Shown: piece after piece, positions 14,159-60,520 of the stretch | How positions within the stretch are numbered: the stretch's first letter is position 1 | Layout: the number at the start of each line of letters is the position of its first letter | IMG/VR virus record: IMGVR_UViG_3300005937_000014 | Span: 4,363-68,362 of that record | Strand: one strand, 5' to 3' | Length of the DNA stretch: 64,000 nucleotides | From: a virus | Taxonomy: Duplodnaviria > Caudoviricetes | Notes under the pieces: model-generated | What the model was told of the DNA's origin: nothing | What the model saw: only the letters and a program-made list of their open reading frames with translations | Databases searched by the model: none | Position numbers and translations under genes: made by a program

Positions 14159-14219
14159 GGGCTAGTGACTCCGGCGGCAAGGGCGCACAGCGGACGGCTT
14201 CGGCGGGTCAGTAGCTCGC
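14159..14219 (-). ncRNA. Conserved 61-nt 5' leader, copy A (candidate cis-regulatory RNA)
   Basis: 58/61 identical to 60460-60520; begins right after the -10 TACGGT; nested inverted repeats. Confidence 0.55.
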
Positions 14220-14329
14220 CTACCGTATCCGTCGCTCACGACGTGTGCCATCCCCCGCCTGGGGGAGTCTCACGCCGTGTCGTCCGCCCGGCGGTGTAGG
14301 GTCGGGTATCACCGACCGAGAGGGGCACC

Positions 14330-14767
14330 GTGAGCACCGAGGTAGCCGAACGCAAGACCGTGAAGGACCGCCGGGCCGACCTGGCGAGGTGGCGCGCGAA
14401 CGTCGAGTCGAGCACTGCGAGCTACGCGACCGGCGAGTGGAAGGCGAAGGCGCTGCGCACCGTCGAGCGGCGCGAGCGGCGACTCGCCTCGTTCCCCGAC
14501 GAGATGGCGCTGCTGACCTACAGCGAGGCGATGCGCTCGCCGCTGATCCTGCCGGTCGAGAAGGCGGCGATCCGCTGGCAGTACCGCTCCTCCTGGCAGC
14601 AGGGGTCGTTCTGGACGGCGCTCTGGGAGGCGATCTCGTGGGCCGACGAGGAGCACCTGACGAAGCTCGCGCTGGGCTACCCGACCGAGGTCGAGGCCGT
14701 CCGGCGCTGGCGCGACGAGCCGGGCTTCTCAGACATGGTCGAGGGGCTGCCGCTCGCGTTCGAGTAG
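14330..14767 (+). CDS. Hypothetical protein
   Basis: TAGGGT -10 (~14296), RBS GAGGGG, good codon bias. Confidence 0.65.
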   Translation: MSTEVAERKTVKDRRADLARWRANVESSTASYATGEWKAKALRTVERRERRLASFPDEMALLTYSEAMRSPLILPVEKAAIRWQYRSSWQQGSFWTALWEAISWADEEHLTKLALGYPTEVEAVRRWRDEPGFSDMVEGLPLAFE

Positions 14768-14784
14768 AAGTCGAGAGGAGGGGC

Positions 14785-15123
14785 ATGGCAACGACCGAGC
14801 AGGAGACGGGCAGGGGCAAGAAGGCGGACACGGCCGAGGACGCCGTCGTCGCCGCCGAGAGCGACGGGAAGTCCCGGCAGGAGACGCTCTACGTGATCCT
14901 GCACCAGCCCGAGGAGGGCGACACGTGGGTGCGGATCGAGGGGTACACCACGGCAACGAACAAGGACGCGGCGGTCAACGCCCACCTCGAAACGCTGCCG
15001 CCGCTCGGGGAGGGGAAGCGGAACGGGCGCTGGAAGGCGATCTCGTCGTCCGCCTGGCGTGGTGGAATCTCCATCGAGGAGATCACCGAGGTGCGCGCCA
15101 AGAAGTCGGAGATCAACGACTGA
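14785..15123 (+). CDS. Hypothetical protein
   Basis: RBS GAGGAGG, ATG 14785. Confidence 0.65.
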   Translation: MATTEQETGRGKKADTAEDAVVAAESDGKSRQETLYVILHQPEEGDTWVRIEGYTTATNKDAAVNAHLETLPPLGEGKRNGRWKAISSSAWRGGISIEEITEVRAKKSEIND

Positions 15124-15126
15124 GGG

Positions 15127-15465
15127 GTGGTGGAGGCCGCGCTGCGCGACAGCCGCGACCTGCGCGACCCCGAGCAGATCGGGCTGCGCCTGTTCACTCT
15201 CCGGGATGGGGACAGGCGCAGCCCGGCGCACGTGCTGGCGGACCGGCTCGACCGGGGCGGGCAGGTGCCGTCCTACCTGGAGGCGCGCCCCGAGGACGTG
15301 TTCCCGAACCTGCACACGCCGGGCGAGCGGGTCGCACGCGCCGCGCTGCTCGCCGCCGACGAGGAGCCGCTCGACCTCGCGGTCGCGATGTGCCCGAACT
15401 GTGGCAACGCCATCGAGGAGTGCCGGTGCGAGTCGAGTGCTGGGGCGGGCCGCTCGACGGTCTGA
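15127..15465 (+). CDS. Hypothetical protein with C-terminal CxxC
   Basis: Closely packed ORF; CPNC....C.C. Confidence 0.5.
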   Translation: MVEAALRDSRDLRDPEQIGLRLFTLRDGDRRSPAHVLADRLDRGGQVPSYLEARPEDVFPNLHTPGERVARAALLAADEEPLDLAVAMCPNCGNAIEECRCESSAGAGRSTV

Positions 15466-15719
15466 ACTTCGGCTCCTCGCTCGCCTCGCTCGGGTTCGTG
15501 TGGATGAGCAAGAGCGGGCGGGCCTACCGGCAACCCCGCGAGGGGATGCACCTGTACCGGCGGATGGGCCGGTCCGGCAGGGTCGTGATGTTCGGCTACG
15601 CCGGGCACACACACACCATCTGCGCCGCGTGCGGGGTGTTCACGCGCAAGACGCCGCGGCGACGCTGTGGCCTCTGCAACGCTGTTCTCGTAGGTGAGGG
15701 AGCGCACGACGAGGGGTAG
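15426..15719 (+). CDS. Hypothetical protein (WGGPLDG motif, zinc ribbon)
   Basis: GGPLDG start motif typical of small phage proteins; CAAC...CGLC. Confidence 0.45.
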   Translation: MRVECWGGPLDGLNFGSSLASLGFVWMSKSGRAYRQPREGMHLYRRMGRSGRVVMFGYAGHTHTICAACGVFTRKTPRRRCGLCNAVLVGEGAHDEG

Positions 15720-15729
15720 ACTCGGCGGC

Positions 15730-16335
15730 GTGGCGAGGCCGCGCGCGAAGTCCAAGAGCCTGGAGGGAGAGGCGAAGGCCCAGACCAAGGCGACGCGCTC
15801 GCCCAAGCCGCGTGCCGGTCGCAAGTACCTGACGCCCGCCCAGCTTGCCAAGCGCAACGCGGCCATCGTCAACGCGCGGATCGTGCTCGACTGGACGTGG
15901 ACGCGGATCGCCCACGAGTTCGGGATCGGGGAGCGCACCGCCCGCGGCGTCGTCGCGGACTACCGAGCCGAGAACCTGCTCGGGCTGGACGAGATCGAGG
16001 CGAACGCCGAGGTCTGGGAGATCCTCGCCGGGCACGACGCGCAACTGGAGCGGTACCGCAATCTGCTCGAACGCGCCCGCGCGAAGCACAACTACATGGC
16101 CGAGATCGCCGCCGAGAAGGGCATCCGCGACACGCGCCGCGAGCGCACGAACGTGCTCCAGGAGGTCGGGGCGCTGCCGAAGAACCTGGGCAAGCTCCAG
16201 GTCGAGCACGAGGTGCGCGTGGTCGTGCAGAAGGTGATGGGCGTGCTGGACGAGGTCGAGCGCGGCGACTTGCAACCCGGCGAGGCGAAGCGCAGGCTGG
16301 CCGAGATGATCGGCGCGGCCGTCACCCCGAACTGA
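15730..16335 (+). CDS. terS: Probable terminase small subunit (HTH)
   Basis: HTH WTRIAHEFGIGERTARGVV; position directly upstream of TerL with TGATG overlap; -10 TAGACT 7 nt before the GTG (leaderless). Confidence 0.65.
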   Translation: MARPRAKSKSLEGEAKAQTKATRSPKPRAGRKYLTPAQLAKRNAAIVNARIVLDWTWTRIAHEFGIGERTARGVVADYRAENLLGLDEIEANAEVWEILAGHDAQLERYRNLLERARAKHNYMAEIAAEKGIRDTRRERTNVLQEVGALPKNLGKLQVEHEVRVVVQKVMGVLDEVERGDLQPGEAKRRLAEMIGAAVTPN

Positions 16336-18173
16336 TGCGCTCCCGCGCGCCGCACCGGCCCGGTGGCTGGGCGAACGTCCGCTACCGCCGCTCCTCCGAC
16401 GGCGTGGACTACGAGGGCGTCAGCGTCGAGGATGCGCTGCGCGAGTCGCTCGCCATCGACCTGCGCGAGACGGAGAACCTGCGCCAGCCGTTCTTCCCCT
16501 GGGCAACGCGCATCCACGAGCCTAAGACCGGCCCGCTCGACTTCACGCGCTTCCCGTTCCAGCGCGAGCTTTACACCGACGAGTTCGCCTACGACGCCGA
16601 GGGCGTGATCAAGAAGGCGACGCAGGGCGGGCTGAGCGCCTGGCTGATCCGCTGGACGCTGTTCTTCCCGGACACGAAGGGCTGGACGAGCCTGTACGTG
16701 TTCCCGAAGGCGAAGCAACTCAACGAGTTCTCCGACCAGCGCGTCAAGCCGCTGATCGAGCGCAGCGAGTACCTGCGCGAGCGCGTGCCCTACGGGTACG
16801 TGAACAACAAGGGCTTGAAGCAGGTCGGCCTCGGCTTCGCGAACTACCGCGGCTCGCAGAACAAGGACGAGTTGGACTCGGTGGACGCCGACGTGATCGG
16901 CTTCGATGAGTACGACCGGCTCGTGCAGGAGAACATCCCGGACGCCGAGCAGCGGATCACCGGCTCGCCGCACGGACTGATCCGCCGGGTCGGGGTGCCG
17001 ACGATCCCGCGCCGCGGGATCGCGCGCCTGTACGACGAGAGCGACCGGCGCAAGTGGCTCGTCAGGTGCGAGCGGTGCCGGATCGGCTGGCAGGAGATCG
17101 ACTTCTGGCACAACGTTGCCCAGGACGGCGACCGCGTGCGGATCGTCTGCTCCGGCTGCCGCAGGCCGCTCGATGTGCGCGAGGGCGAGTGGGTGCCGGG
17201 CGTGACCGAGGTGCAGCGCCCGCGCGGCTACCACGTGCCGCGGCTGATCGTGCCCGGCACGAACCTGGCCCGGATCGTCCTGCACTCCAAGCAGCGCAAG
17301 CCGTACGAGATCACCCGCTTCTTCAACAAGGATCTCGGGCTGGAGTACGCCAACCCGGAAGGGTCGCTGAACGAGGCAGCCATCGAGGCGGCACAGACGG
17401 CCGGTGGCGGCTACGAGCTTCCGCAGGGCTACCGGGGGGAGCGCCCGGTCACGTGCGGGATCGACATGGCCTCGACGCGCGCCGCGACCGTGCGGATCTC
17501 CGAGCACTTGGACGAGGAGACGAAGCGGGCGCTCTGGATCGGGGAGGTGGACGGCCGCAACCTGCGCGAGTTCATCGGGCGGCTGTCCGACCTGATGACC
17601 CGCTACCGCGTGAACATGGCGAGCATCGACCACCTGCCGGACGGCCGGGTCGCGCGCACGTTCGCCAACATGTTCCCCGGCATCGTCTACGTGACGGCGC
17701 TCTCCGGCCGACAGCAGAAGCAGATCCTGCTCGTGGACGACCAGCTACTCCAGGCGTCGGTGAAGCGCACCGAGGCGCTCGACGCGATGATCTCGATGGT
17801 CCGCGAGCAGAAGAACCACCTGCCCGTGACGCTGCCGGAGGGCTACGTCGAGCAGATGTGCGCGCCGCAGCGGTTCGAGGAGGAGGACGAGGAGACGGGC
17901 GAGGTGGACGTGGGCTACCTCTCGACCGGCCCGGACGACTACGCGATGGCCGAGGTGTACGACATGATCGCGACCGAGTTGTGGTGGATGCGCCAGACCG
18001 TGCAGGGCTACTTCCAGAAGCGGACGACCACCCTGGAGGAGCACGTGCCGTTCGAGCGCAGCGACCTCGACACCTACGGCGAGGACTCCGAGTTCAGTCT
18101 CGGCCCCGAGCGCGACATGACCGACACCGAGGAGGACTGGAAGCCGCTGGACGAGGAGTGGCCGCGGTACTAG
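16335..18173 (+). CDS. terL: Terminase large subunit (GpA-like family)
   Basis: FPFQRELY, KATQGGLS (Walker A-like), IGFDEYD (Walker B), VGVPT, CERC/CSGC zinc finger, nuclease motif TCGIDMA and GPDDYAMA. Confidence 0.9.
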   Translation: MRSRAPHRPGGWANVRYRRSSDGVDYEGVSVEDALRESLAIDLRETENLRQPFFPWATRIHEPKTGPLDFTRFPFQRELYTDEFAYDAEGVIKKATQGGLSAWLIRWTLFFPDTKGWTSLYVFPKAKQLNEFSDQRVKPLIERSEYLRERVPYGYVNNKGLKQVGLGFANYRGSQNKDELDSVDADVIGFDEYDRLVQENIPDAEQRITGSPHGLIRRVGVPTIPRRGIARLYDESDRRKWLVRCERCRIGWQEIDFWHNVAQDGDRVRIVCSGCRRPLDVREGEWVPGVTEVQRPRGYHVPRLIVPGTNLARIVLHSKQRKPYEITRFFNKDLGLEYANPEGSLNEAAIEAAQTAGGGYELPQGYRGERPVTCGIDMASTRAATVRISEHLDEETKRALWIGEVDGRNLREFIGRLSDLMTRYRVNMASIDHLPDGRVARTFANMFPGIVYVTALSGRQQKQILLVDDQLLQASVKRTEALDAMISMVREQKNHLPVTLPEGYVEQMCAPQRFEEEDEETGEVDVGYLSTGPDDYAMAEVYDMIATELWWMRQTVQGYFQKRTTTLEEHVPFERSDLDTYGEDSEFSLGPERDMTDTEEDWKPLDEEWPRY

Positions 18174-18267
18174 GCTGACCGTCGGCCGCGCTCCACAATC
18201 CGGTGCTGTCGTGAGTTCGCGCTCGATGATAGGTCGGTGGCTCGGAGCGCGGCCCCTCCTGGTTAGT

Positions 18268-18286
18268 ACACGATGTGTGCTACACT
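18268..18286 (+). promoter_or_regulatory. Repeated operator/-10 element (ACAC-gat-GTGT-gc-TACACT)
   Basis: Perfect copy with the conserved leader. Confidence 0.8.
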
Positions 18287-18323
18287 GCCCTTGTGTGCAG
18301 AACCGACCAGTAGGAGGTAGTCG

Positions 18324-22904: not shown

Positions 22905-25034
22905 GTGGCGCGGCTGCCGCACCCGACCAGCCCGGCCGGTCGGCTGCTCGAACTGGCCGAGTCGGCGCTCGGCGTCGCAGTGCGCCCGACCGGGCAGGTG
23001 CGCGCCCTGGAGGAGCAGGCCGTCGAGTACGGCGCGCAGTCGCGGATGCTCGACCTGCTTGGCTGGAGCGTGCTCGACCACTTCTCCGGGCGCGAGCAGG
23101 AGGTCAAGTGGGAGTCGCGGAAGGTGATGGCGCGCAAGGCGCGGGTCGCCTGGATCAACGACCCGATGGTCGGCGGCGCGGTCGCGCTGATGAACGACTT
23201 TGTGCTCGGGCGTGGCATCCCGAAGCCGCGCTGCCGCGACGAGCTTGTCCAGGAGAAGGTCGATGAGGCGTGGGACGACCCCGACAACCGGCGCATCCTG
23301 ACCGACTTCCTGGCGCAGATCGCGCTGAACACCGACCTGTCGCTCCAGAGCAACGTCCTGTTCCTGCTCTTTGACGAGGGCGACGACGGGCGCGTGAAGA
23401 TCAGCACGCTCAACTACGACTCGGTCGAGGACGCTGTCACCGATCCCGAGAACCGCCACCGGGTGCTCTGGTACGTCGCGCGCCAGCGCAAGGCGAAGTG
23501 GGACTTCGAGAACGACCGCTGGGAGATCGACACTCAGGGCGACATCAGGGCCGAGAAGTGGTACTACGAGCACTGGCACAACGTCAAGGACGCCGAGGAC
23601 GAGGACCGCGCCGAGCCGCTGGACAAGCCGAAGGAGGACCGGGTCGGCAAGGGGCGCGTCCACCACGTCGCCCTGAACCGCACGAGCGAGATGGTCTTTG
23701 GCGTGCCCGAGTGGCAGCGGGTGCTCCGCTGGGCGACCGCCTACAACGACTTCATGAAGTCGCGGGTGGACATGGTCAAGGCGGCGGCGGCGTTCGTGCT
23801 CAAGAACAAGGTGACCGGCTCCCCGGCGCAGGTCGCCCGGCTAGCGGCGAAGGTCGTGTCGAGCCAGCGCCCGCTGGCCGGTGGGCAGTTCCCCATTGAC
23901 GTGGACGCGACCGATTACGGCATGGCTCCGCGCAGGCCCGGCGCGGTGCTGACCGAGAACGAGGCGTCGCAGTGGGAGAGCTTCAAGATCGACTCGGGCG
24001 CGGCGAACGCGCAGCTTGACGCGGCGAACCTGCGCTCCCAGTTCTCCGCCTCGACGCGCTGGCCGCAGCACTACCTGGGCGCGGGCGACGGGCCGGGCTT
24101 GGCGACGGCGACGGCGATGGAGCTTCCCGTGCTCAAGATGGTCGAGACGCGCATCGAGATCATCGAGGGCATCTACCGCTGGTTCATCGACCGGGTGATC
24201 GAGCGCGCGGTGGACGCCGGGACGATCCCCGAGGAGGTCGAGCCGGAGGCGACCGAGGAGCCGGGCGCTGCGCCCGCCCCGCTCGGCCTGGCGGCGGCGC
24301 TCCGCGAGGCGTCCGAGAACGGCGAGCGACTGGTCGGGGTCGTGCGCGTGCCGTCGCTGCGGGGCCGCAGGCGCGTGCTGCTCGCGACCCGCAACCTCGG
24401 ACGCGACGAGCACGTGAGCTACCGCGTGGTCTACGAGGCGCACGAGGACAAGACCGCCGACGAGGCGAACACCCAGCGCGACCTGGGCTACGACTTCAAG
24501 CTGACCTCGCCGCTGCGCCGGATGATGGGCGACCTGGTCAGCAGCGTCGCCAACATCGCGCGCACCTTCGACCCGAACAACACGAACCTCGAACTGTCGC
24601 GGACGCTCCTGTACGTGGCGCTCTCCGACGGCCTGGAGATGGAGAACGCGAGCGACCTCGTGGACGAGATCTTCCCGGAGGGCTACGTCGATCCGATGCT
24701 CGCGCAGGCGCAGGCGCAGGCGGAGGGCGAGCAGCCCGGCTCGCCCAACGGGCAGCCCAACTTCTTCGGGCCGGACTTCGCGCGCTTCATGGGGGCCGAG
24801 GGGGAGATGCACGGGCCGGAGAACCCGTACGGCGCGCCGATGCAGTCCACGCCGCCCGAGCGTGTGCGGACGCAGCAGGCCGTCGTGCGCGAGCTTCCCG
24901 ACGACGTGGCGGACGAGGTCACGACCGAGGAGAAGCGCACCGACAGCCTCTGGGCGGAGGTGGTGAGCGTCGTGCAGGACGAGCTTGCCGACCTCGCCAC
25001 GACGAACGGCAAAGCCGCCGAGAACGGGAGGTAA
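22905..25034 (+). CDS. Portal protein
   Basis: 709 aa, downstream of TerL and upstream of the MuF-like gene; AVALMNDFVLGRG, HVALNR.SE..FGVPE...W...YNDF..SR pattern typical of portals. Confidence 0.75.
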   Translation: MARLPHPTSPAGRLLELAESALGVAVRPTGQVRALEEQAVEYGAQSRMLDLLGWSVLDHFSGREQEVKWESRKVMARKARVAWINDPMVGGAVALMNDFVLGRGIPKPRCRDELVQEKVDEAWDDPDNRRILTDFLAQIALNTDLSLQSNVLFLLFDEGDDGRVKISTLNYDSVEDAVTDPENRHRVLWYVARQRKAKWDFENDRWEIDTQGDIRAEKWYYEHWHNVKDAEDEDRAEPLDKPKEDRVGKGRVHHVALNRTSEMVFGVPEWQRVLRWATAYNDFMKSRVDMVKAAAAFVLKNKVTGSPAQVARLAAKVVSSQRPLAGGQFPIDVDATDYGMAPRRPGAVLTENEASQWESFKIDSGAANAQLDAANLRSQFSASTRWPQHYLGAGDGPGLATATAMELPVLKMVETRIEIIEGIYRWFIDRVIERAVDAGTIPEEVEPEATEEPGAAPAPLGLAAALREASENGERLVGVVRVPSLRGRRRVLLATRNLGRDEHVSYRVVYEAHEDKTADEANTQRDLGYDFKLTSPLRRMMGDLVSSVANIARTFDPNNTNLELSRTLLYVALSDGLEMENASDLVDEIFPEGYVDPMLAQAQAQAEGEQPGSPNGQPNFFGPDFARFMGAEGEMHGPENPYGAPMQSTPPERVRTQQAVVRELPDDVADEVTTEEKRTDSLWAEVVSVVQDELADLATTNGKAAENGR

Positions 25035-46440: not shown

Positions 46441-47163
46441 GTGGCGCTGGCCGAGTGGATCGAGCGCGTCGAAGGCTCCATCGCTGACGAGGACATGCTG
46501 CACGTGCTCGGCGCGGAGGCCGAGGCCGACACCACGCTGAACGCACACGACCGCGCCCAGGTGATCGGCCGGGTCGAGCGGTACCTGGAGAGCTTCGATG
46601 ACATGCGCGCCGGGAAGCTCGTGAGCGCCGCGGAGTTCGCGCTCGGCGGGCCGGTCCTGGACGACGACGTGCCGGACTTCGACCTGGGCGACGATGACCG
46701 GAGCGACTCGCCGCTCTCCGAGGCGCTCGCTGAGGTGCTGGCCGAGGCGGTCTGGGAGGAGCGGCTGCACCCGCGCAACCGGCTCGGCAAGTGGATCGAG
46801 AAGCTGCGCAAGCTCGGAGGGGCGAAGGGGCTGCGCGAGCGCGGCGGCAAGGCGGGCCAGGCCGTCAACCGGCGGCTCGCCCGCAGCACGCTCGTGGCGA
46901 TGCCCCCGCTGGTGCTCTCGCAGCTACACACCTTCCTCGACCGCTTCGACGCGGGCTACCTGTTCGATCCCGAGTTCTGGACGCCGGGGCCGTCGCCGCC
47001 GAGCACGATCTACGGGCAGTTCCCGGAACTGATCACCTGGCTGGCGACGCAGGCGAACCCCGAGGTGCTGATGTCGCTCGTCCACCTGATCGCCTCCGAG
47101 GACCAGGCCGAGCGCGACGAGGGGAAGGCGCTGATCGAGGCGGTGCTGCGTGAGCGTCGGTAG
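46441..47163 (+). CDS. LHPR-tagged protein (probable virion/ejected component)
   Basis: AEAVWEERLHPRNRLGKWI; -10 TACACT about 6 nt upstream of the GTG (leaderless). Confidence 0.65.
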   Translation: MALAEWIERVEGSIADEDMLHVLGAEAEADTTLNAHDRAQVIGRVERYLESFDDMRAGKLVSAAEFALGGPVLDDDVPDFDLGDDDRSDSPLSEALAEVLAEAVWEERLHPRNRLGKWIEKLRKLGGAKGLRERGGKAGQAVNRRLARSTLVAMPPLVLSQLHTFLDRFDAGYLFDPEFWTPGPSPPSTIYGQFPELITWLATQANPEVLMSLVHLIASEDQAERDEGKALIEAVLRERR

Positions 47164-50100
47164 CTACGTCGAGCACCTTCACCCGCGCGACCGCTACGGC
47201 AAGTGGCGCGACGTGCCCGACCTGCCGCGGACGCCCATCATCGACCTGCGCGACGACCCGCGCGGGTTCGCCGCGATCTATGACGGGTTCGAGCACGGCG
47301 GCATCGAGGCGCACGTGAACGGCACTACCGTGGACGCCGACGCGCGCGCGACGACGATCTGGGGGACGTTCGAGCACGACCCCGGCGACGGCGGCGGGCC
47401 GATCACGGTCGGCAACTTCGAGCACACCCTGTACGACGACGACGGCCCGGTGATCACCCGCGACCTGATCGAGCTACACCCTGACTTCCGCGAGCGCGGC
47501 TTCGCGACGGCCTTCTACGCGCACGAGGAGCAGCAGGCGCTCCGCCACGGCGTGACCAGGATCGAGTTGACGGCGGCGATGGAGACGGGTGGCTACGCCT
47601 GGGCGCGGGCCGGGTTCGAGTTCGACCTGGGGCCGGTCGCCGGGCCGAAGATGCTCTGGGAAGCGTACGCCGAGTACGGCAAGCCGGATCGCAAGCAGCA
47701 GCTTCGCGAGATCCAGGGCCACGTCGGGCCGCAGGCATGGGCGGCGTTCGAGGACAAGTTCCCGCACGACGAGGAGTGGCCGAGCGCGCGCGTCCGGCGC
47801 GAGGAGGGGATCGAGGCCGATCCCGACTGGTTCACCTCTCCGGCGGAGATCGCCGCCTACGGCCGCGACGGCCCGCACTGGAGCGAGGGTGGTCACGACC
47901 TGTGGCTCGGCAAGGCGTTCCTGCTCGGCTCCGGGTGGAACGGCGTGAAGTGGCTCAGGACGCCACAGGAGGCGATCTCCGAGGCCGACGACACCGTGCG
48001 ACTGACGACCCTCGTTACAGCACTTCATGCGCTCTGGGCTGCACAGGGAGCCGTACACGTGCCTCCAGACGAGATCGCTGGGGACGACGATGCCGGATTC
48101 TGGGACGCGGTCGAGCGGGCCGCTGCACGCATCCAGGAGGCGAGCGCATACGTCGAGCGGCTCCACCCTCGTGAGCGGACAGGGAAGTGGCGGAGCAAGC
48201 TCGGTCTAGGCCGGGCCGTGCGTGCCGAGGTGGCGGCACGCCCCCGCCTGCCCGAGATCCAGAGACGCGACCGCCCGCTCGCCTCCGGGATGGCCTTCCG
48301 GCGTGCCCGCACCCGCCCGGCGCTGATGCGCGAGACGGGCACCCACGGCGACGAGTTCATGTTCGAGATGGCGACCGACCTCGGCTACGCCGGACGGCCG
48401 ACGCGCGTCCCGAGCGGCGAGGTGGACGCCGCCGTCGCCGCCGGGGGCACCGAGGTCTGGCGGGGCGTCTCCGACGAGACGTACGCCGAGGCGCTCGTGA
48501 CCGGCCCCTACTACGCCGGACAGGGCTTCCGAGGCTCCGGCATCTACGTGGCGCACGGCGAGGACGGCCGCACGCGGGCGGTCAGCTACGCGCAGGCACC
48601 GCCGACCCGTGGGATCGCCGCCAAGACGGACCGGCCGACCGTCCAGCGGATGGCGCTCCACCCGCAGGCGAACGTCGTGGAGTACGAGGAGATCCGCGGC
48701 CGGGCGGAGGCCGAGCACAAGCGGCTGGCCGAGAAGCTTCGCTCGCCGGGCCTCTCCGAGAAGGCCAGCGAGGAGGAGGTGCTGGCCGAGGTCGCGCGTG
48801 ACCCGGCGCGCTACGCGATGAGCCAGGGGTACGACGCCATCCGCATCAACGACGCCGAGATGAACGTCCTGAACCGCACGGCGCTGCTCGTGGACGAGGC
48901 GTTCGAGGAGGCGGGCACGAGCGTCGTCCGGCGGGGGCGCGCGGCCGTCGAGGCCGAGTACGAGGAGCACCTCCACCCGCGGGGCCGCGGTGGGCGCTGG
49001 ATTCGCAGGCTCGCCATCGAGCGTGCGTTCGCGATGCGCGACCTGCCGGGCCAGGGGACGATGCGTACGCGCACGACCGAACCGGTCGAGAGCGAGCGGA
49101 AGATCAAGGCGTCTCGGATCAAGCCGGGCGACGACTTCTGGCTGGAGCCGCCGAAGGGCGAGCGCCGCCAGCGCGTCCACGCCCAGCACGTGATCCAGAC
49201 GCCGGGCAACGTCGTGAAGGTGCAGACCCGCCGCGGCGAGGAGGTCACGTACGGGCCGAACGAGCCGGTCACGCGGATCGACACGCAGCCGGGTCTGCGG
49301 GACGCGCTGCTGATCCAGGCGCGCGAGGCGTTCGCTGGCGAGGGGCAGCCGATCACGCCCAGGCCGTTCGAGTACCTGCGGCTCGTGATCCCAGAGGGGC
49401 CGGGCGGCGGCGTGGTGCGCTACGAGCCTCGCGCCGGGCGGGTGCCGAGCGAGGTGTTGCGCGGGCTGCCCAAGGGGGCGCAAGTGGGGATCGGCTCCGA
49501 CCTGCGGCCGTTCGAGCGCGAGCAACTCGGCATCGAGATCGAGCCGGGCGACCTGGTCACGGTGCCCGCCCACGGCGTCACCAAGAGAGGCCGCGTGGTC
49601 AGCGTCGGCCGCAAGAACGTGAAGGTCGAGATCGACGTGAGGGGCAAGCCGCGCATCCTGACGAGACTCCCCTCCGACCTGACGATCACGGCGAAGGCTC
49701 CGAGCGAGGACGAGATCCTGAGCCGCTACGCCGACTGGACGCGCGAGCGGCTCCGCAACCTGACCAGCCGCGAGTCCGGCGCGAAGGTCGCGGTGCGCAT
49801 GAACTCGGGCGGGCTGCCGACGCTGCTCGATGAGGGCCGGATGCGGAACGCCCACCACGGCTCCTCCTACGACGATCCCGAGCGGGGCACTCGCGGCGAG
49901 TCATACGAGCGGCACCGGGCCGAACTGGAGCGCGCCTGGTTCCACATCGACACGTCGGAGACGGCCGACCCGGATGCCTACCCGGTGTACGGCTACGTGA
50001 CGACCGACCAGGAGGATCTCGGCAAGACCGAGCGCGGCAGCTTCTCGCAGGCTGTCCACGGCTTCGGGGACGTGAAGCTGACGCTCCGCGATCACGTGCG

Positions 50101-52576
50101 CGAGCGCACCACCGTCACCTTCTCCGACTCGAACTACATCGCCGGGAGCGAGCACACGAACGCGGTCGCCTCCCCGATTGACGACCCGTCCGAGTTGAGC
50201 GTCTCGCACTTCCAGAACCTGCGCGGGATCGAGAAGCCGGTCTACGAGTACGGCGACGAGCCGCGTCCCTACCCGGAGTTCACGCCGGAGGAGCGCGAGC
50301 GGATCAGGCGGGCGGGCGAGGCGTACTACTCGAATCCCGAGGACGCGGAGGAGGCTCGCGAGGCGAAGCGCATGGAGATCGCGGAGGAGAGGGGCTGGCG
50401 GCGCTGGCGGCACGGCGACTTCATCGAGGCGCAGATCCACGGCACCGTCCGCATCCCCGAGGACGTGGAGCGGATCGACTTCACGACTCCGGCCGACCCG
50501 GAGATCAAGCGACGCTTGGACGAACTCGGCGTGCCCTACTTCGAGCACAATCTCCCCGAGGTGGTCGAGGCGTTCGAGGAACATCTGCACCCGCGCGGTC
50601 GGGGTGGGCGCTGGATTCGCCGCATGTGGCATCTGGCTCCGGCGACCTCGACCCAGTCGATCAAGCAGCACGGCCTCCAGCACGAGCGCGGCGGCGAGCG
50701 GCGCGTGACGCAGCCGGGCACCTACCTGTGGGACAACCCCGAGGACGCCGAGAAGTACCGGCGCTTCTGGGGCGGCAGGGACATGCGGCTCTACCAGGTC
50801 GAGACGGTCGGCCTGGACCTCCAGCCCGACCCGCTCGGCGTGCCGGGCGCGTTCGTCACCAAGGAGACGATCCCGCCGGAGGCCATCGAGCCGGTGGACG
50901 AGCACGGCGACCTGGTCCGGCGGGCGCTGTGGTCGTGGGTCGGCTGGCCCTCCGACATGCGCATCCACATGGCGGACGAGATCGCCGGAGCACCGGAGCC
51001 GTCGAGCGGCAGCGGCAAGGATCGGCGCGAGCAGGCGCGGACGCTGCTGGCCGAGCTTCGCGAGCGCGGCAGGCCGAACGACAAGCCGCTCTACCGGGGC
51101 GCGAGCAAGGGGCACGAGCCGAGCACCGAGCTTCCGAGTTCGTGGAGCGAGCGGCTGGCGGTCGCGCGCAAGTGGGCGGGCAAGGACGGGACGGTCGAGA
51201 CGCTCAAGAAGGGAGCCGGGCACGGGATCAAGATGGGCGACTACGTCGAGTCGCAGCAGGACGACCAAGAGCGGCAGTGGTTGATCCTGCCCGACCGCGT
51301 CGAGTCGGAGGGGATCGAGGACTACCGCGGCCTCCACCGCGCGCCCGAGCGCGGCGAGGAGAGCGAGGGGTCGAGTCTCGACAACCCGACGATGATGTTC
51401 GGCGGCGACGACATCTACGGGCCGCACGCGCTGCGCTACTTCGGCAGCGGTGGCCCCAGTCCGTCACAAGACCCGGAGACGCAGGCGTGGGCGCGCCGGG
51501 CGCAGCAGGCGGATCGGGAGAGCCTCGCGGCGATCAAGGCGGCACGCGGCAAGCCGGATCACGTGGTGACCATCTACCGCGGTGTGCCGAAGGGCGTGAC
51601 GGAGATCCAGCCGGGCGACTGGGTGACGCTGTCGAGGACGTACGCGGAGCTTCACGGCGAGTCGAACCTGGAGGCTCCCGGCGGCGGCTACGAGGAGCCG
51701 TCCGAGTTCGAGGTGCTGTCGAGGCAAGTGCGCGCGGGCGACCTGTACACCGACGGCGACCTCAACGAGTGGGGCTGGAGTCCGGGTGCCCGCGTCGAGT
51801 CGCCGGGCCTGGAGTTGACCGACGAGGAGGAGGCGGAGTTGGCCGCGGAGGACGAGGCGTTCGCCAAGGCGCTCTCGAAGCTCGGCCCGGCCCGGCCGAC
51901 CGAGCCGGTCGAGGCTCCGAACCGGCACGCCGAGTGGCTTGCGGCCCTCGACCGCAGCGTGATCAAGGACGTGCCCGAGATCCCCGAGGGCGTGACGCTG
52001 TTCACCTCGGAGGGCCAGAACCCGCTGACGCACGGGCAGGCGCGCAGACACCTGGCCGATCTCGCGCTCGTGCCCGAACCGGCGATGGAGAAGCTCCGCG
52101 GGAGCGGCGTCGAGTGGCTGATCGGTGACGGGCCGGTCCCCGCCGCGCCGGGCTACTCGTACCTAACGACCGAGAAGCCGCGCGGGTGGGGCGGCGGCTG
52201 GACGTGGAAGAACGTCGCCGGGATGTACGACCAGCACCGCAACAAGGTGATCTCCGGGGTCGGGAGGCACGGAGCCAAGAGCCTCGTGCTGCACGAGACG
52301 GGCCACGCGCTCGCGCGCAAGCTGAACCTGATCGGTCAGTCCGACTTCTGGGTCGAGGAGCCGGAGCACCAGGCGCTGATCGCGCACCACAAGCGGCTGT
52401 ACCGCAAGCTCGACTCCTACGAGAAGCAGCGGTCGCGCGGCGGCAGCGGCAACTACCACGGCCGCGACGAGATGGCGGCGACTGGCTTCGAGTGGCTGCT
52501 CAAGGAGGGCCGGGAGGCGACGGTCGAGCGGTACGACGAGGAGTTCGTGGCCTGGCTGGAGGAGAAGCTCTCGTGA
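47150..52576 (+). CDS. 1808-aa polyvalent effector protein (GNAT, several ART-like domains, DUF3626-like domain, zincin peptidase)
   Basis: GNAT (PDFRERGFATAFY...GGYAWARAGF). ART-like segments VWRGV..GSGIYVA..GYDAI, WHLAP..SIKQHGL, LYRGA..SSWS and TIYRGVP..GDWVTLS. PVYGYV..FIEAQIHG (DUF3626-like). LHETGH. Four LHPR tags. Confidence 0.8.
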   Translation: MSVGSYVEHLHPRDRYGKWRDVPDLPRTPIIDLRDDPRGFAAIYDGFEHGGIEAHVNGTTVDADARATTIWGTFEHDPGDGGGPITVGNFEHTLYDDDGPVITRDLIELHPDFRERGFATAFYAHEEQQALRHGVTRIELTAAMETGGYAWARAGFEFDLGPVAGPKMLWEAYAEYGKPDRKQQLREIQGHVGPQAWAAFEDKFPHDEEWPSARVRREEGIEADPDWFTSPAEIAAYGRDGPHWSEGGHDLWLGKAFLLGSGWNGVKWLRTPQEAISEADDTVRLTTLVTALHALWAAQGAVHVPPDEIAGDDDAGFWDAVERAAARIQEASAYVERLHPRERTGKWRSKLGLGRAVRAEVAARPRLPEIQRRDRPLASGMAFRRARTRPALMRETGTHGDEFMFEMATDLGYAGRPTRVPSGEVDAAVAAGGTEVWRGVSDETYAEALVTGPYYAGQGFRGSGIYVAHGEDGRTRAVSYAQAPPTRGIAAKTDRPTVQRMALHPQANVVEYEEIRGRAEAEHKRLAEKLRSPGLSEKASEEEVLAEVARDPARYAMSQGYDAIRINDAEMNVLNRTALLVDEAFEEAGTSVVRRGRAAVEAEYEEHLHPRGRGGRWIRRLAIERAFAMRDLPGQGTMRTRTTEPVESERKIKASRIKPGDDFWLEPPKGERRQRVHAQHVIQTPGNVVKVQTRRGEEVTYGPNEPVTRIDTQPGLRDALLIQAREAFAGEGQPITPRPFEYLRLVIPEGPGGGVVRYEPRAGRVPSEVLRGLPKGAQVGIGSDLRPFEREQLGIEIEPGDLVTVPAHGVTKRGRVVSVGRKNVKVEIDVRGKPRILTRLPSDLTITAKAPSEDEILSRYADWTRERLRNLTSRESGAKVAVRMNSGGLPTLLDEGRMRNAHHGSSYDDPERGTRGESYERHRAELERAWFHIDTSETADPDAYPVYGYVTTDQEDLGKTERGSFSQAVHGFGDVKLTLRDHVRERTTVTFSDSNYIAGSEHTNAVASPIDDPSELSVSHFQNLRGIEKPVYEYGDEPRPYPEFTPEERERIRRAGEAYYSNPEDAEEAREAKRMEIAEERGWRRWRHGDFIEAQIHGTVRIPEDVERIDFTTPADPEIKRRLDELGVPYFEHNLPEVVEAFEEHLHPRGRGGRWIRRMWHLAPATSTQSIKQHGLQHERGGERRVTQPGTYLWDNPEDAEKYRRFWGGRDMRLYQVETVGLDLQPDPLGVPGAFVTKETIPPEAIEPVDEHGDLVRRALWSWVGWPSDMRIHMADEIAGAPEPSSGSGKDRREQARTLLAELRERGRPNDKPLYRGASKGHEPSTELPSSWSERLAVARKWAGKDGTVETLKKGAGHGIKMGDYVESQQDDQERQWLILPDRVESEGIEDYRGLHRAPERGEESEGSSLDNPTMMFGGDDIYGPHALRYFGSGGPSPSQDPETQAWARRAQQADRESLAAIKAARGKPDHVVTIYRGVPKGVTEIQPGDWVTLSRTYAELHGESNLEAPGGGYEEPSEFEVLSRQVRAGDLYTDGDLNEWGWSPGARVESPGLELTDEEEAELAAEDEAFAKALSKLGPARPTEPVEAPNRHAEWLAALDRSVIKDVPEIPEGVTLFTSEGQNPLTHGQARRHLADLALVPEPAMEKLRGSGVEWLIGDGPVPAAPGYSYLTTEKPRGWGGGWTWKNVAGMYDQHRNKVISGVGRHGAKSLVLHETGHALARKLNLIGQSDFWVEEPEHQALIAHHKRLYRKLDSYEKQRSRGGSGNYHGRDEMAATGFEWLLKEGREATVERYDEEFVAWLEEKLS

Positions 52577-56385: not shown

Positions 56386-56589
56386 GTGCGCATCACCGCA
56401 CAGAGTCTCGACGGCCGCTACCTCGTGATCGACGGGGAGCGCGTGCTCGACACGCACGAGCGCACGCTCTCGCAGCCGAAGTCGTCCGCCGACCTCGGGA
56501 CCGGCTGGCACCCCTACCGCGGCCCGCAGAACCTCGCCCGGCGGCTCCGCGACGTGGACCCGGTCGATGAAGTGAGCGTGACGACGTGA
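56386..56589 (+). CDS. Small hypothetical protein
   Basis: -10 TACACT about 7 nt upstream of the GTG (leaderless). Confidence 0.5.
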   Translation: MRITAQSLDGRYLVIDGERVLDTHERTLSQPKSSADLGTGWHPYRGPQNLARRLRDVDPVDEVSVTT

Positions 56590-58190
56590 GCATGGTCGTC
56601 ACCGACCTGGAGAATCTGCGTGACGAGATCGAGCGCACCGCCGCACGTGACGACCTGACCAGCGAGGAGCGCCGGGCGCTGTTGACCGCACTCCGCGCCC
56701 GGCTGACCGAGGCGACCGGCCTCTGCGACCGCTACCTGGCCGACGAGGATCGTGTCCGTGAGGGCGAGGCGCAGATCGCCTGGGAGCAGCGCGAGCGCCT
56801 GTACGCGAACGCCGACCTGCGCGCCCAGCTACTCGACCGCGGCCTGGCGACCGAGGACGAACTCGACAACCTCGGCTACTTCTCGCACGCCGATCTGGAG
56901 AAGCTCAGCGAGGCCGGGCGGCTGGAGGAGGCCGTCGAGTGGCTGGAGAAGCTGCACCCGCGCGAGCGGACCGGCAAGTTCAAGGAGAAGTTCGGCTCGT
57001 GGCTCCGCAGCAACCTGCGGTTCAAGTCCCCACCGAAGGAGCCGCTGGTTGGCCCACGCCGCCGACCGCGCACCCCGGAGGCTCCGTCCGCACCCTCTCC
57101 TCCGACGGAGCCACCGGAGGTGCCGGACGAGTTCGCGCAGAAGCGGACAGCGATGGAGAAGCGGGTGGCCGACTTCGTTGCCAGCGGGCTGGAGCGCGCG
57201 AAGCTGACCGACGCCGAGCAGCACTTCAACGAGGCGGGCGCAGTCAGCCAGCGGACGCTGCTCCAGTACGTCAACGACGCGGCGACGCAGCCGCGGAGCA
57301 TCGACCGCTACTCGACCGTGGACGCGAACGGCGTGCGCACCTGGGACGAGTCGCGGCGCGATCTGCACGAGGCGATCATCGACATGTTCCTGCGCCAGCG
57401 GGTGTTCAACCCGGACGGCGACGGCGGCAAGGGGACGTGGGAGTTGTCGGCCGAGGCACCGCCGCTGGAGGGCGTCGAGAACCCGGAGGTGCTGTTCTCG
57501 GGAGGCGGCTACGCGGCCGGGAAGTCGAGCGTGCTCAAGATCAACCGCGCCGCCGGGAAGGAGCCGGAGTCCGGGTACGACGGGCCGACGCTCGTGCTCG
57601 ACCCGGACATGATCAAGGCGCAGCTACCCGAGTTCCAGGCGCTGCTCGGCTCCGACCCGGAGGCGAACCTGCTCGTCTACGAGGAGGCGTGGCTGATCGC
57701 CCAGGAGATCCAGGCGCGCGCCCAGGAGCGGAAGCTGAACATGGTCGTGGACGGGATCTCGGACACCTCGCCGGACGAGATGATCCAGCGGGCGCAGAGC
57801 TTCTTCGACAACGGCTACACGGGCAAGGCGATCTACGTGGACATCCCGACCGAGGAGGCGATGCGCCGGGCGGAGAACCGCGCCCGCAACGCGAAGGACG
57901 ACTCGGACAAGCGGCACATCCCCGAGGTGATCATGCGCGCCGTCCACCGCGACGTGAGCGCGACCGTGCCGAACATGCTCCGGCGACTGGCCGAGGACAA
58001 CATCCCGCTGGAGGTCGAGGTGTGGGACAACGACCAGGGGAAGGACGAGCAGGGATCGTTCCGCCCGCCGAAGCGGCACATGCACTACGTGCCCGGCACG
58101 GGCGAGAACGTCGAGGACGAGTTCCTCTGGGGGCGCTTCAAGGGGAAGGCCCAGGAGGAGATCAAGCTGCCCGGCGGCACCACGGCGTGA
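56586..58190 (+). CDS. LHPR-tagged zeta-toxin-like P-loop kinase
   Basis: WLEKLHPRERTGKF tag; LFSGGGYAAGKSS (Walker A), VLDPDMIK, NMVVDG, RA.NRA...RHIPE (zeta/AAA_33 pattern). Confidence 0.8.
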   Translation: MSMVVTDLENLRDEIERTAARDDLTSEERRALLTALRARLTEATGLCDRYLADEDRVREGEAQIAWEQRERLYANADLRAQLLDRGLATEDELDNLGYFSHADLEKLSEAGRLEEAVEWLEKLHPRERTGKFKEKFGSWLRSNLRFKSPPKEPLVGPRRRPRTPEAPSAPSPPTEPPEVPDEFAQKRTAMEKRVADFVASGLERAKLTDAEQHFNEAGAVSQRTLLQYVNDAATQPRSIDRYSTVDANGVRTWDESRRDLHEAIIDMFLRQRVFNPDGDGGKGTWELSAEAPPLEGVENPEVLFSGGGYAAGKSSVLKINRAAGKEPESGYDGPTLVLDPDMIKAQLPEFQALLGSDPEANLLVYEEAWLIAQEIQARAQERKLNMVVDGISDTSPDEMIQRAQSFFDNGYTGKAIYVDIPTEEAMRRAENRARNAKDDSDKRHIPEVIMRAVHRDVSATVPNMLRRLAEDNIPLEVEVWDNDQGKDEQGSFRPPKRHMHYVPGTGENVEDEFLWGRFKGKAQEEIKLPGGTTA

Positions 58191-58209: not shown

Positions 58210-58238
58210 TTGACACGATGTGAGTCACGTGAGAGCAT
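58210..58238 (+). promoter_or_regulatory. Promoter of the RAMP/array locus (TTGACA-17-GAGCAT) with a degenerate operator ACAC-gat-GTGA over the -35
   Basis: TTGACA 58210-58215, ACACGATGTGA 58213-58223. Confidence 0.5.
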
Positions 58239-58294
58239 CGCGTGCTGACTCCACCAAGCCTCGGTAACAGGCGAGGCGGGAAGGACAGCACACG

Positions 58295-58900
58295 ATGAAG
58301 CTCTACCTCGTGGCCGACGGCCGCGCAGAGTCGGGCGGGTCGCCGCTGATCATGCACAGCGACCGGCTCGTAGATCCTCTCGATGAGTGGACGCGCAAGA
58401 TCGCGGCGCTCACCAGCAAGCGCAAAAGGACCGAGGAGGATCACGTCGCCATCGGTCGGCTGGAGTTCGAGGGCGGCATGTACCAGAACGGCAACGGGCC
58501 GTGCGTCCCGGCCCTCAACATCCTGCGCTGCTTGCAGGAGGCGGCATCGCGGCATAAGCGGGGCAAGGACGTGAAGCGCGGTGTCTACCCGCGCGAGCAG
58601 CACGCAGACCTCCAGTACGAGGGGCCGCGTGACGTGGACGAGTTGTGGAAGGCGGGCACGTTCGCGCTCCGCAAGCCCGTCGGCGTGAACCGGGGCCAGT
58701 CGCGCACGGTGCGCACCCGGCCGATCTTCCAGGACTGGCAGCTTCGGTTCCTGATCGAAGTCGATCCGCTGATCTTCGACCGGGACGCCATTGTGCAGTT
58801 CTGGCGGGAGGCGGGGGTTTATGAGGGGCTGGGCGACATGCGCCCGATCTACGGCAGGTTCAAGGGCGATGTCCAGGACGCTCCCAAGGACGCGGTATGA
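58295..58900 (+). CDS. Stand-alone Cas7/RAMP-like protein (Vipr-like candidate)
   Basis: N-terminal beta strand plus SPLIMH, central P..NI..CL.EAA, R..F.DW.L.F.I, and a C-terminal Gly-rich loop GLGDMRPIYGRF characteristic of RAMP/Cas7-group proteins. No other cas genes nearby. Confidence 0.72.
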   Translation: MKLYLVADGRAESGGSPLIMHSDRLVDPLDEWTRKIAALTSKRKRTEEDHVAIGRLEFEGGMYQNGNGPCVPALNILRCLQEAASRHKRGKDVKRGVYPREQHADLQYEGPRDVDELWKAGTFALRKPVGVNRGQSRTVRTRPIFQDWQLRFLIEVDPLIFDRDAIVQFWREAGVYEGLGDMRPIYGRFKGDVQDAPKDAV

Positions 58901-59091
58901 GCCATCCCTACGACCAGTTCGTACACGTGCTGACGCGAATCGCGCAGGCGACGAGCATCAAGCGCGTGATGACCGAGGACGAGATCCGCTTCCAGCGGAA
59001 CGGCGGGCCGACGGCGGAGTTGATCGAGCGGGTGACGGCGGAGTTGCCGAAGCTCGAAGCGATTGCGCGGCGGCTGGAGGCCGACCTCTGA
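58897..59091 (+). CDS. 64-aa accessory protein between the RAMP gene and the array
   Basis: ATGA overlap with the RAMP gene; its stop codon abuts the first pentamer. Confidence 0.6.
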   Translation: MSHPYDQFVHVLTRIAQATSIKRVMTEDEIRFQRNGGPTAELIERVTAELPKLEAIARRLEADL

Positions 59092-60059
59092 GGCGCGGCG
59101 AGGCAAGGCTCCCCTTACTGGGCGTGGCGAGGCTCCCCTGCTCCGTCCGACGGAGCGAGCACGAAGCCAGGCGGTACCCGGCATGGCATGGCCCGGCTAG
59201 ACCAGGCTCGGTGTGACTAGGCAGACCACGTGCTCGGCTTGGCGCGGCATGGTTGGGCATGGCACGGTTCGGCTGGGCGTGGCAAGGCTTCCCTGCTCCG
59301 TTCGACGGAGCGAGCAGCCCGGCGGGGCGAGGCGAGGCTTGGTGCGGCGTGGTAGGGCATGGCGTGGCGCGGCAAGGCTCCCCTTGGCGGTGCCGGGCTT
59401 GGCTTGGCGCGGCGGGGCAAGGCTCGGCCAGGCACGGCTTGGCGAGGCTCCCCTCTGGCGCGGCAGGACTTGGCATGGCCCGGCAAGGCTCGGTACGGCT
59501 TGGCAGGACTCGGCTGGGCAAGGCTTCCCTCTCGGCTGGTCTGGGCAACGGCGGGGCATGGCGCGACCGGGCCGGGCTGGGCACGGCAGGACTTGGCTCC
59601 CCTCTCGGCGCGGCAGGTCTTGGTCGGGCGTGGCCGGGCATGGCACGGCTTGGCGAGGCAGGGCGAGGCTCCCCTCTCGGGGCTGGGCGTGGCGCGGCAG
59701 AGCACGGCAGGTCGTGGCAGGTCGCGGCGGGACTAGGCGGGTTCGGCTTGGCAGATCGTGGCTCAGCAGGGCAGGACAAGGCTCCCCTCGTGGCTAGCCG
59801 AGGCCCGGCAAGGCGTGGCCTGTCCGGGCAGGACGTGGCTGGTCGGGGCAAGGCGAGGCCCGGCCTGGCGCGGCACGGCTTGGCCTGGCACGGCCTGGCA
59901 TGGCGCGGCTCGGCTCGACTAGGCGCGGCGTGGCTCCCCTCTCGTGGCTAGGCTCGGCTTGGCCTGGCGCGGCCAGGTATGGCATGGCTCGGCTCGGCAA
60001 GGCGAGGCCCGGCTAGGTACGGCCTGACACGGCTTGGCGGGGCTGGGCAAGGCTTCCCT
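59092..60059 (+). repeat. Array of phased GG(C/T)-NN pentamers in about 10 units delimited by GGCT(C/T)CCCT (candidate guide-RNA array)
   Basis: Delimiters at 59107, 59131, 59286, 59376, 59446, 59522, 59595, 59667, 59780, 59932, 60051. In-phase runs of 10, 11, 12, 13, 12, 28 and 21 pentamers. Two GCTCCGT-(C/T)CG-ACGGAGC hairpins. Confidence 0.9.
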
Positions 60060-60074
60060 AACGGGCGGCTCGTG

Positions 60075-60353
60075 ATGATGCGAGCCGCCCACCCTCCTAC
60101 ACTGGTGCGCGTGAGGCTGTACGAGATCGTCCGCGAGGACGAATTCGGGGTCGCCGTCGCGGAGGCCGTCGAGTTCGAGAATGGCTCCGTCGCCGTCGGG
60201 CCGTACATGCTGTCCGACCCGCCGAATGTGAGCGTGTTCGCCAGTCTGGACGACATGCTGCTCGTCCACGAGCGGCGCGGCGAGCGGCGCGTGGTCGGCC
60301 GGGAGACGCCGGACGACTTCCTCGGCGGGGATGACCTGACGCCAGCGGCGTAG
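60075..60353 (+). CDS. Conserved small actinophage protein
   Basis: GVAVAEAVEFENGSVAV...SVFASLDDM...H motif. Confidence 0.6.
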   Translation: MMRAAHPPTLVRVRLYEIVREDEFGVAVAEAVEFENGSVAVGPYMLSDPPNVSVFASLDDMLLVHERRGERRVVGRETPDDFLGGDDLTPAA

Positions 60354-60459
60354 ACTGCCGCCGGGCGGCGGGGTTACCTTCGACGGGACACGCCGCCCTC
60401 TCCGCGAGATTCCCCCGTTCGGGTGAGCGCACGCTGTTCGATTCTGGCGTAGGGTGAGC

Positions 60460-60520
60460 GCGAGCTACTGACCCGCCGAAGTCGTCCGCTATGCGCACTT
60501 GCCGCCGGAGTCACTAGCCC
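60460..60520 (+). ncRNA. Conserved 61-nt 5' leader, copy B (candidate cis-regulatory RNA)
   Basis: 58/61 identical to the reverse complement of 14159-14219; follows the -10 TAGGGT (60450-60455). Confidence 0.55.

Follow-up and report, generated by a model that had tools for sequence, protein, structure and literature searches.

The 64,000-nucleotide (nt) stretch of DNA analysed here (called the window below; bases 4363-68362 of the linear, 68,362-nt IMG/VR virus record IMGVR_UViG_3300005937_000014) contains two nearly identical copies of a 61-nt element, each located immediately upstream of one of two distant paralogous genes, P0001 and P0002 (Table 1). The excess conservation of this block over its flanks and over the synonymous sites of the downstream genes is real, which indicates that the block is either under constraint at the nucleotide level or has recently been homogenised. 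Summed over the conceivable mechanisms, we consider it likely that the element is functional and constrained at the nucleotide level. As to the mode of action, we tentatively favour a selectively maintained transcribed leader that is read by a trans-acting factor; the evidence for action as RNA or as DNA is close to balanced, and a DNA operator is a close rival of the transcribed leader.

The near-identical block had been pointed out in a first-pass annotation of the sequence, and recomputation bears out both its coordinates and the identity of 58 out of 61 positions; the copies differ at element positions 23 (C/T), 32 (G/A) and 38 (C/A). Exactly two copies are present in the 68,362-nt record, the next best match in a blastn search with a word size of 7 being only 23 nt long (E = 0.066). 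Both loci show the same order of features: at copy 1, a -10-like TACGGT is followed after 2 nt by the element and after another 29 nt by the ATG at 14129, and at copy 2 TAGGGT is followed after 4 nt by the element and after another 28 nt by the ATG at 60549, in good agreement with the distance of about 30 nt between element and start codon reported earlier. The two downstream genes are indeed paralogous, with 63% amino acid identity over 72 alignment columns and 146 of 198 identical nucleotides; over 66 codons, the proportion of synonymous differences (pS) is 0.34 (0.341), with a synonymous divergence (dS) of 0.455 and a nonsynonymous divergence (dN) of 0.28. Homology between the two loci spans about 330 nt, and the claim that the leader is far better conserved than flanks and coding sequences is fully supported by the alignment. 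Far upstream, identity is at background level (63/152 columns); it amounts to 29/54 in the promoter block reaching from the motif GAGAYTCCCCC to the element and to 8/19, plus an indel, in the spacer after the element. A second conserved patch (27/30) extends from the Shine-Dalgarno (SD) sequence to 19 nt past the ATG. The probability of three or fewer differences within 61 nt is 4.9e-8 at the divergence of synonymous sites and 1.6e-5 at the overall divergence of the coding sequences.

Table 1. Features of the two loci and of their surroundings (window coordinates)
Feature	Position	Strand	Remarks
61-nt element, copy 1	14159..14219	-	imperfect palindrome with arms 5-16 and 47-59, dyad near position 32
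61-nt element, copy 2	60460..60520	+	58/61 identical to copy 1
Putative promoter, copy 1	14222..14250	-	candidate hexamers TGGCAC (14250-14245), 17 nt, TACGGT (14227-14222)
Putative promoter, copy 2	60427..60455	+	candidate hexamers GCGCAC (60427-60432), 17 nt, TAGGGT (60450-60455)
Upstream motif GAGACTCCCCC	14261..14271	-	start of similarity between the loci; first half of the inverted repeat TCCCCC..GGGGGA
Upstream motif GAGATTCCCCC	60406..60416	+	copy-2 counterpart of GAGACTCCCCC
SD sequence GGAGG of P0001	14136..14140	-	predicted to pair with element positions 42-49 (GCCGCCGG) in the minimum free energy fold of the full untranslated region
SD sequence GGAGG of P0002	60540..60544	+	same alternative pairing with the element possible
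P0001, 71 amino acids	13914..14129	-	SH3-like small beta-barrel domain only
P0002, 132 amino acids	60549..60947	+	P0001-type N-terminal domain and C-terminal HTH_17/excisionase-like helix-turn-helix (below Pfam cut-off)
12-bp GC-rich hairpin CTGAGGCCCGCC / GGCGGGCCTCAG	13861..13903		separates P0001 from the convergent plus-strand open reading frame upstream
364-nt cassette	13905..14268	-	upstream motif, promoter, element, SD sequence and P0001; absent from one source-sample contig
Large terminase, gpA-type	15897-18173		Pfam/PHROGs
Portal	22905-25034		Pfam/PHROGs

Sequences resembling parts of the element or of its surroundings were also noticed next to it. The spacer of copy 2 contains a near-repeat (CTCACTAGC, 60528-60536) of the 3' arm of the element (GTCACTAGC), and a GACTCAC word within the first codons of both genes (ATGACTCACTCG) is similar to CTCACTAGC and GTCACTAGC.

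We propose that the 61-nt block is the promoter-proximal control element of a small expression cassette that is present twice in the phage and would comprise a weak promoter, the element, a variable spacer, an SD sequence and an open reading frame (ORF) for an SH3-like domain. One copy would head P0002 with its helix-turn-helix (HTH) and the other the stand-alone domain gene P0001, the latter as a reversed, moron-like insert. Its action would most likely be post-transcriptional: located at the 5' end of each of the two mRNAs, the element would form a long imperfect hairpin starting a few nt from this end; its 3' arm (GCCGCCGGAGUC) could pair alternatively with the SD region, and its near-invariant loops and bulges might be read by a trans-acting factor, such as a phage or host protein or RNA polymerase. 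Both paralogues would thereby come under one and the same post-initiation control. Conservation sets in sharply 2-4 nt after the candidate -10 box while the promoter itself is poorly conserved, which fits a function in the transcript and for which there is no obvious reason in the case of a DNA site. The element is oriented with the gene, and its 3' arm is complementary to both the 5' arm and the SD sequence. With respect to the promoters, both upstream hexamers contain GCAC and are located 17 nt 5' of the -10-like box, and the -10-like boxes fit the loose pattern TANNNT only. A promoter inside the element, recognised by a host or phage sigma factor, was considered and dismissed as the main explanation: no convincing hexamers were apparent by eye in the element, of which only two copies exist.

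The helix described in the first-pass annotation (positions 5-16 paired with 47-59, and an inner stem of 28-30 with 34-36) was recovered as part of the minimum free energy (MFE) fold of the isolated sense 61-mers of both copies (-17.7 and -19.1 kcal/mol). The single pair that varies between the copies changes from C23-G42 to U23-G42, and pairing is thus kept. When the full 5' untranslated regions (UTRs) are folded, element positions 42-53 (GCCGCCGGAGUC) are predicted in both copies to base-pair around the SD sequence, namely with C[C/U]GGAGGC and with a GAC 5' of it, and this pairing arises in both UTRs despite their differing spacers. The closed hairpin and the SD-paired fold are close in energy (-25.4 versus -25.7 kcal/mol for copy 1 and -25.8 versus -26.9 kcal/mol for copy 2, corresponding to a cost of 0.3 and 1.1 kcal/mol). 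A switch between SD-free and SD-sequestered states is therefore possible according to these models, although alternative pairing is weak evidence in such GC-rich sequence.

Several observations weigh against this interpretation. Compared with dinucleotide shuffles, the stability of the sense 61-mers is unremarkable (z -0.52 and -1.17), and the whole 5' UTRs even show positive values (z +0.85 and +0.27). Of 9,758 61-nt windows of the record, folded on both strands (mean -21.4 ± 5.0 kcal/mol), 78% and 68% are more stable than the sense element of copy 1 and of copy 2, respectively. Considerably greater stability is predicted for the complementary strand (-30.2 and -32.5 kcal/mol; z -2.80 and -4.65), in which G.U pairs take the place of two A.C mismatches of the sense hairpin and account for the difference. 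An imperfect palindrome is the most apt description of the block, and folding energy gives the sense RNA no preference. Of the 18 pairs of the MFE structure, 17 are invariant and none shows a double-sided change, a comparison that comprises two sequences only, and the ensemble probability of the closed hairpin differs markedly between the copies (about 0.83 versus 0.1-0.16). Rfam 15 yielded no match in the whole window at gathering thresholds, and even at E <= 10 no match in the region of copy 1 covers the element. A row for Atu_At1 (14194-14282, minus strand) overlaps the first 26 nt of the element only and scores 16.8 bits against a threshold of 60; all other rows fall outside the element. 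This is in line with the earlier statement that the block does not resemble a known riboswitch. The -10 boxes proposed earlier do lie 2-4 nt in front of the element, but a scan with the sigma-70 consensus detects neither candidate promoter, and the start of the transcript is thus our inference. Uniform conservation of all 61 bp would fit a DNA site equally well, and the presence of only two copies, both in front of paralogues, can be explained by shared descent. The view of the block as a structured 5' UTR is therefore supported by its being non-coding as far as the two genes are concerned, by its position between a plausible promoter and the SD sequence and by its conservation, but neither by the fold of the sense strand relative to shuffles and genome windows nor by compensatory changes; as a structured RNA the element is unproven and thermodynamically unsupported.

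The closest alternative to a transcribed leader is a DNA operator, which we regard as possible rather than likely. Here, the block would be a 61-bp imperfect palindrome bound by a phage or host protein, possibly by P0002 via its HTH, that blocks or loops the promoter-proximal DNA and co-regulates the paralogues. Its dyad symmetry, with arms of 12-13 nt centred on position 32, would suit such a role, as would the location of a palindrome that begins 2-4 nt after the candidate -10 box and thus adjoins the promoter. All positions are conserved, even those that are unpaired in the RNA models, and the sense RNA is not unusually stable; in addition, weak matches to HTH_17 were found repeatedly, in P0002 and in two homologues, and a truncated paralogue without HTH would be well suited to a pair of regulator and anti-regulator. 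However, 30 bp separate the arms, and a single operator would be expected to be shorter. The -35/-10 region, the usual site of repressor binding, is conserved at only 29/54 positions, and conservation sets in just where the transcript is predicted to start. Moreover, parts of the element do not mark other promoters: GTCACTAGC with up to one mismatch occurs 9 times where 12.6 matches are expected, and of 13 matches to CCGCCGRAG four lie in the two elements and the other nine are without pattern. It is unlikely that the block has no function of its own and is either a recent patch of gene conversion between the loci or a recombination joint left by acquisition of the cassette. Only two copies exist, the loci are homologous over about 330 nt, phage genomes are mosaic, the cassette appears to vary in presence within the source sample, and the searches revealed no homologue elsewhere that would demonstrate long-term conservation. 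Yet the similar tract coincides exactly with the self-complementary unit, and its three differences indicate that it is not brand new. In addition, the divergent, indel-bearing spacer between the element and the conserved SD patch speaks against a single conversion tract; two short independent tracts around the 8/19 spacer would be needed, both of about the minimum length required for homologous recombination.

The remaining explanations are less probable. Feedback control by the encoded proteins, in which the element would be a new translational or transcriptional operator RNA bound by the SH3/KOW-like domain of P0001 and P0002 and would act via the switch of its 3' arm between hairpin and SD pairing, is a reading that we consider quite doubtful. 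The stability of the complementary strand raises the question whether a hairpin RNA or single-stranded DNA antisense to the genes is the functional form, for example as terminator or insulator against converging transcription or as cis-antisense RNA. Just 4 and 0 of 200 shuffles fold as well as this strand, whose 61-mers rank within the top 4.5% and 2% of the genome windows, and the two A.C mismatches of the sense hairpin are G.U pairs here. There is, however, no credible gene on the antisense strand at copy 2 and no U-tract after the hairpin on that strand at either locus, and two G.U pairs on one strand are expected by chance half the time for an imperfect palindrome; a role of this strand thus seems very unlikely. 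Even less probable is a put/nut-like signal for processive antitermination, in which RNA polymerase would be modified by the nascent transcript at two sites close to promoters. The genomic logic would resemble that of putL and putR of phage HK022 (PMC9378689), and behind copy 2 plus-strand genes follow one another up to the end of the contig. In contrast, copy 1 serves a single gene for a protein of 71 amino acids that ends at a terminator hairpin and is followed by no further minus-strand genes, the predicted fold is one rod-like hairpin instead of two stem-loops, there is no Rfam match, and both copies precede paralogues, so that duplication explains the pair. We attach the least credence to translation of the block, either as N-terminal extension or as short upstream ORF. 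The three substitutions all fall in the same codon phase and leave the frame +3 translation unchanged (ELLTRRSRPLCALAAGVTS in both copies), this frame is continuous with the ATG of P0002 in copy 2, and both copies contain a GTG- or ATG-started upstream ORF of 8 codons in frame +2. But in neither copy does an ATG, GTG or TTG follow the upstream stop in frame +3; this frame does not join the P0001 reading frame in copy 1, and it has G+C at third codon positions (GC3) in 13 of 19 codons, compared with 0.8-0.98 for the genes of the record. The combination of phase and synonymy has an estimated chance probability of roughly 0.05-0.08; it is an unexplained coincidence and not compelling.

Relatives of the element were not found in any of the collections searched. 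A blastn search of phages and plasmids gave no match to the element. In IMG/VR, four patterns, exact or gapped, retrieved seven loci (6 + 1), all of them unrelated on inspection, and one gapped pattern retrieved a single locus from genome_contigs, which is located within a coding region and attributable to chance. Three marginal matches of 22-37 nt among 401 sampled Actinomycetota genomes (blastn) fall into GC-rich repetitive or coding sequence and were likewise judged to be chance. Against related viral records, blastn gave one match of 19 nt (E 0.21), and a covariance model (R1) run against four of these records gave none. A metabolite riboswitch was also considered and is unlikely: the element is known from a single genome, it precedes phage genes for SH3-like and HTH proteins without metabolic link, and its fold stability is ordinary.

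Among the ORFs that pass the GC3 filter, P0001 is the sole one on the minus strand that is not overlapped by another. An AlphaFold2 model of P0001 based on a 10-row alignment is all-beta with six strands and has a mean confidence (pLDDT) of 87.9. No solved structure matches this model at E <= 0.001 in a Foldseek search (best E 0.064), and the weak top rows comprise EF-P/eIF5A domain I, FeoA, SH3 and TraI translocation-signal domains. Judged from the model, the domain shared by P0001 and P0002 is an SH3-like small beta-barrel; it is about 60 amino acids long, is characterised by the motif GD.F.G..NGK.Y.VT.TGA.SG..A.DL.TGK.S.PW.Y, and corresponds to no Pfam family. P0001 corresponds to the N-terminal domain of P0002 without the HTH. 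A search of solved structures with the P0002 sequence returned nothing meaningful. Its C-terminal half and two homologues show sub-threshold HTH_17/MerR-like matches (E 0.067, 0.0031 and 1.1e-5), the strongest of which reaches 26 bits with a cut-off of 27 bits, and a weak PHROG match of P0002 is annotated as 'excisionase and transcriptional regulator'. Based on these sequence similarities, P0002 is probably a DNA-binding protein.

Neither protein has close relatives among 5.8 billion clusters, where the sole match (P0003) comprises the HTH part only. An exhaustive profile search with the SH3-like domain detected 13 other proteins at E <= 0.001, most of them giant proteins that carry it internally, including a few small ones and five of 2,140-3,223 amino acids in which the domain is internal. 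Two of these giant proteins (P0004-P0009 set) also show weak EF-P KOW-like and Phage_attach matches. Searches for loci with the domain alignment found none in IMG/VR and genome_contigs and two in metagenomes, one at the end of a contig, within a giant ORF, and another that is weak and was judged spurious; no usable upstream DNA was obtained from the domain searches. With the HTH alignment one viral locus was found, whose gene has a short, apparently leaderless arrangement of promoter and ATG and is not preceded by the 61-nt element. The sequence GTGTGCTACTCT was noticed 6 nt before the ATG of an HTH gene in the related viral contig L017.

Two plus-strand operons flank the reversed P0001 cassette, whose transcription unit ends at the hairpin at 13861-13903, which is probably a bidirectional terminator. 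The 61-nt window at 13853 is among the 25 most stable ones of the record, and the hairpin was missed by the terminator scan because its loop exceeds 8 nt. We compared contigs from one sequencing run that contains the stretch and is probably its source sample. One diverged contig joins position 13904 to 14269 with three other letters in between; the piece missing from it runs from 3 nt within the upstream motif to 9 nt beyond the stop codon of P0001. The contig lacks exactly the cassette, which suggests that promoter, element and gene travel as a unit. This absence rests on a single contig of low depth (4.2) with 37 nt on its shorter side, and its left-hand piece of 209 nt contains 15 other letters and 6 gaps. 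If the variant is real, promoter, element, SD sequence and domain gene constitute a discrete unit of the moron type, carried by one strain and missing from another. Directly upstream of the cassette, a phage-encoded Ku homologue is found (12377-13453; Pfam Ku, E 4.2e-19).

The phage from which the window derives is uncultivated, has a high GC content and is poorly related to others; it stems from a rhizosphere metagenome. Its G+C content is 70%, the completeness of the record is estimated at 56% (CheckV), and almost all credible genes of the record are encoded on the plus strand according to a GC3-based ORF filter. Apart from terminase and portal, the latter only 22-27% identical to that of the closest cultured phages, Pfam and PHROGs identified SSB, RusA, a DnaC/IstB-like ATPase and Ku as well as a sigma-70 region-4 protein and a MarR-like protein. 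The stretch was present in one sequencing run, and no RNA run was among the runs containing it. Two giant ORFs (25233-39284, 4683 amino acids, and 47150-52576, 1808 amino acids) have almost no Pfam matches and resemble polyvalent phage proteins; E-x-LHPR-x(4-5)-GKW-like motifs are repeated in the 1808-amino-acid ORF and in neighbouring ORFs (repeat families D3 and D8). A protein of 534 amino acids (56586-58190) contains a Zeta_toxin-type kinase/P-loop domain (Pfam E 1.9e-18) and has a weak PHROG match to 'minor head protein'. Three copies of a ACACGATGTGTGCTATACTG-like motif (6176-6217, 18257-18298 and 39524-39565; repeat family D15) are each located just 5' of a plus-strand ORF and are promoter-like: a TATACT-type -10 is followed within a few nt by a start codon, possibly indicating leaderless genes. 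Upstream of element copy 2, a region of about 950 bp (59100-60060) consists of plus-strand pentanucleotide GGCNN units (Tandem Repeats Finder periods 10, 15, 20 and 40). This array, in which no credible gene is called, ends about 400 nt 5' of the element and is punctuated by 12 plus-strand copies of a AGGCTCCCCTC-like motif, none of which lies outside 59106-60060; the motif is loosely similar to the GAGAYTCCCCC upstream of both elements. Iterons or an origin, or an array bound by a protein filament, are possibilities for its role.

Conserved DNA sites that are promoter-proximal or located in transcribed regions, are repeated, and control transcription are familiar from phages, for example the operators of phage repressors and Cro-like proteins and the stoperators of Cluster A mycobacteriophages. 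Their length is 13-25 bp, and they are usually numerous or overlap the -35/-10 region. In contrast, the element described here has 61 bp, is located wholly downstream of the candidate -10 box and exists in two copies only. Morons, in turn, are autonomous inserts in phage genomes that consist of promoter, gene and terminator. The P0001 cassette is moron-like in having its own putative promoter, a single small gene, a terminator hairpin and reverse orientation, and in being absent from one variant contig; this likeness concerns the cassette as vehicle and not the 61-nt element itself.

More similar in position are the extended start-associated sequences (ESAS) of Cluster K mycobacteriophages, which (PMC3203893, where the stoperators of Cluster A mycobacteriophages are mentioned as well) are, like the element, actinophage-specific, gene-proximal imperfect inverted repeats just 5' of the ribosome-binding region and start codon. 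Both are also oriented with the gene and suspected of acting on expression (PMC3203893). ESAS have arms of 17 bp with a spacer of mostly 4-13 bp and adjoin the 13-bp start-associated sequence (SAS), which contains the SD sequence; there are 11-19 SAS per genome, about half of them with ESAS, in front of unrelated gene families (PMC3203893). The element, with its arms of 12-13 nt placed 30 nt apart, its distance of 28-29 nt from the ATG and its two copies restricted to paralogues, is set apart by this description. HK022 contains two similar elements of about 70 nt, putL and putR, downstream of two promoters, putL directly after PL, and thus likewise a pair of elements of some 60-70 nt at two promoters of one phage (PMC9378689). 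However, the put RNAs form two stem-loops and serve long operons (PMC9378689), whereas a single hairpin is predicted for the element and one of its units consists of a single small gene. The hosts differ as well, that of HK022 being E. coli and that of the phage studied here being high-GC and actinobacterium-like. The element is thus a new orphan within the general class of gene-proximal conserved leader or operator elements of phages, set apart from ESAS and, judged by its predicted single hairpin and the monocistronic unit of copy 1, probably also from put.

At present, the element is an orphan of a single genome, and its main value is that of a well-delimited experimental target. If functional, it would represent a compact, portable control module, composed of promoter, 61-nt element and SD sequence, from a lineage of high-GC phages with almost no characterised relatives. 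It could then demonstrate co-regulation of a DNA-binding protein and its truncated paralogue in such phages, and would place the hitherto unnamed SH3-like domain found in giant phage proteins in a defined regulatory setting.

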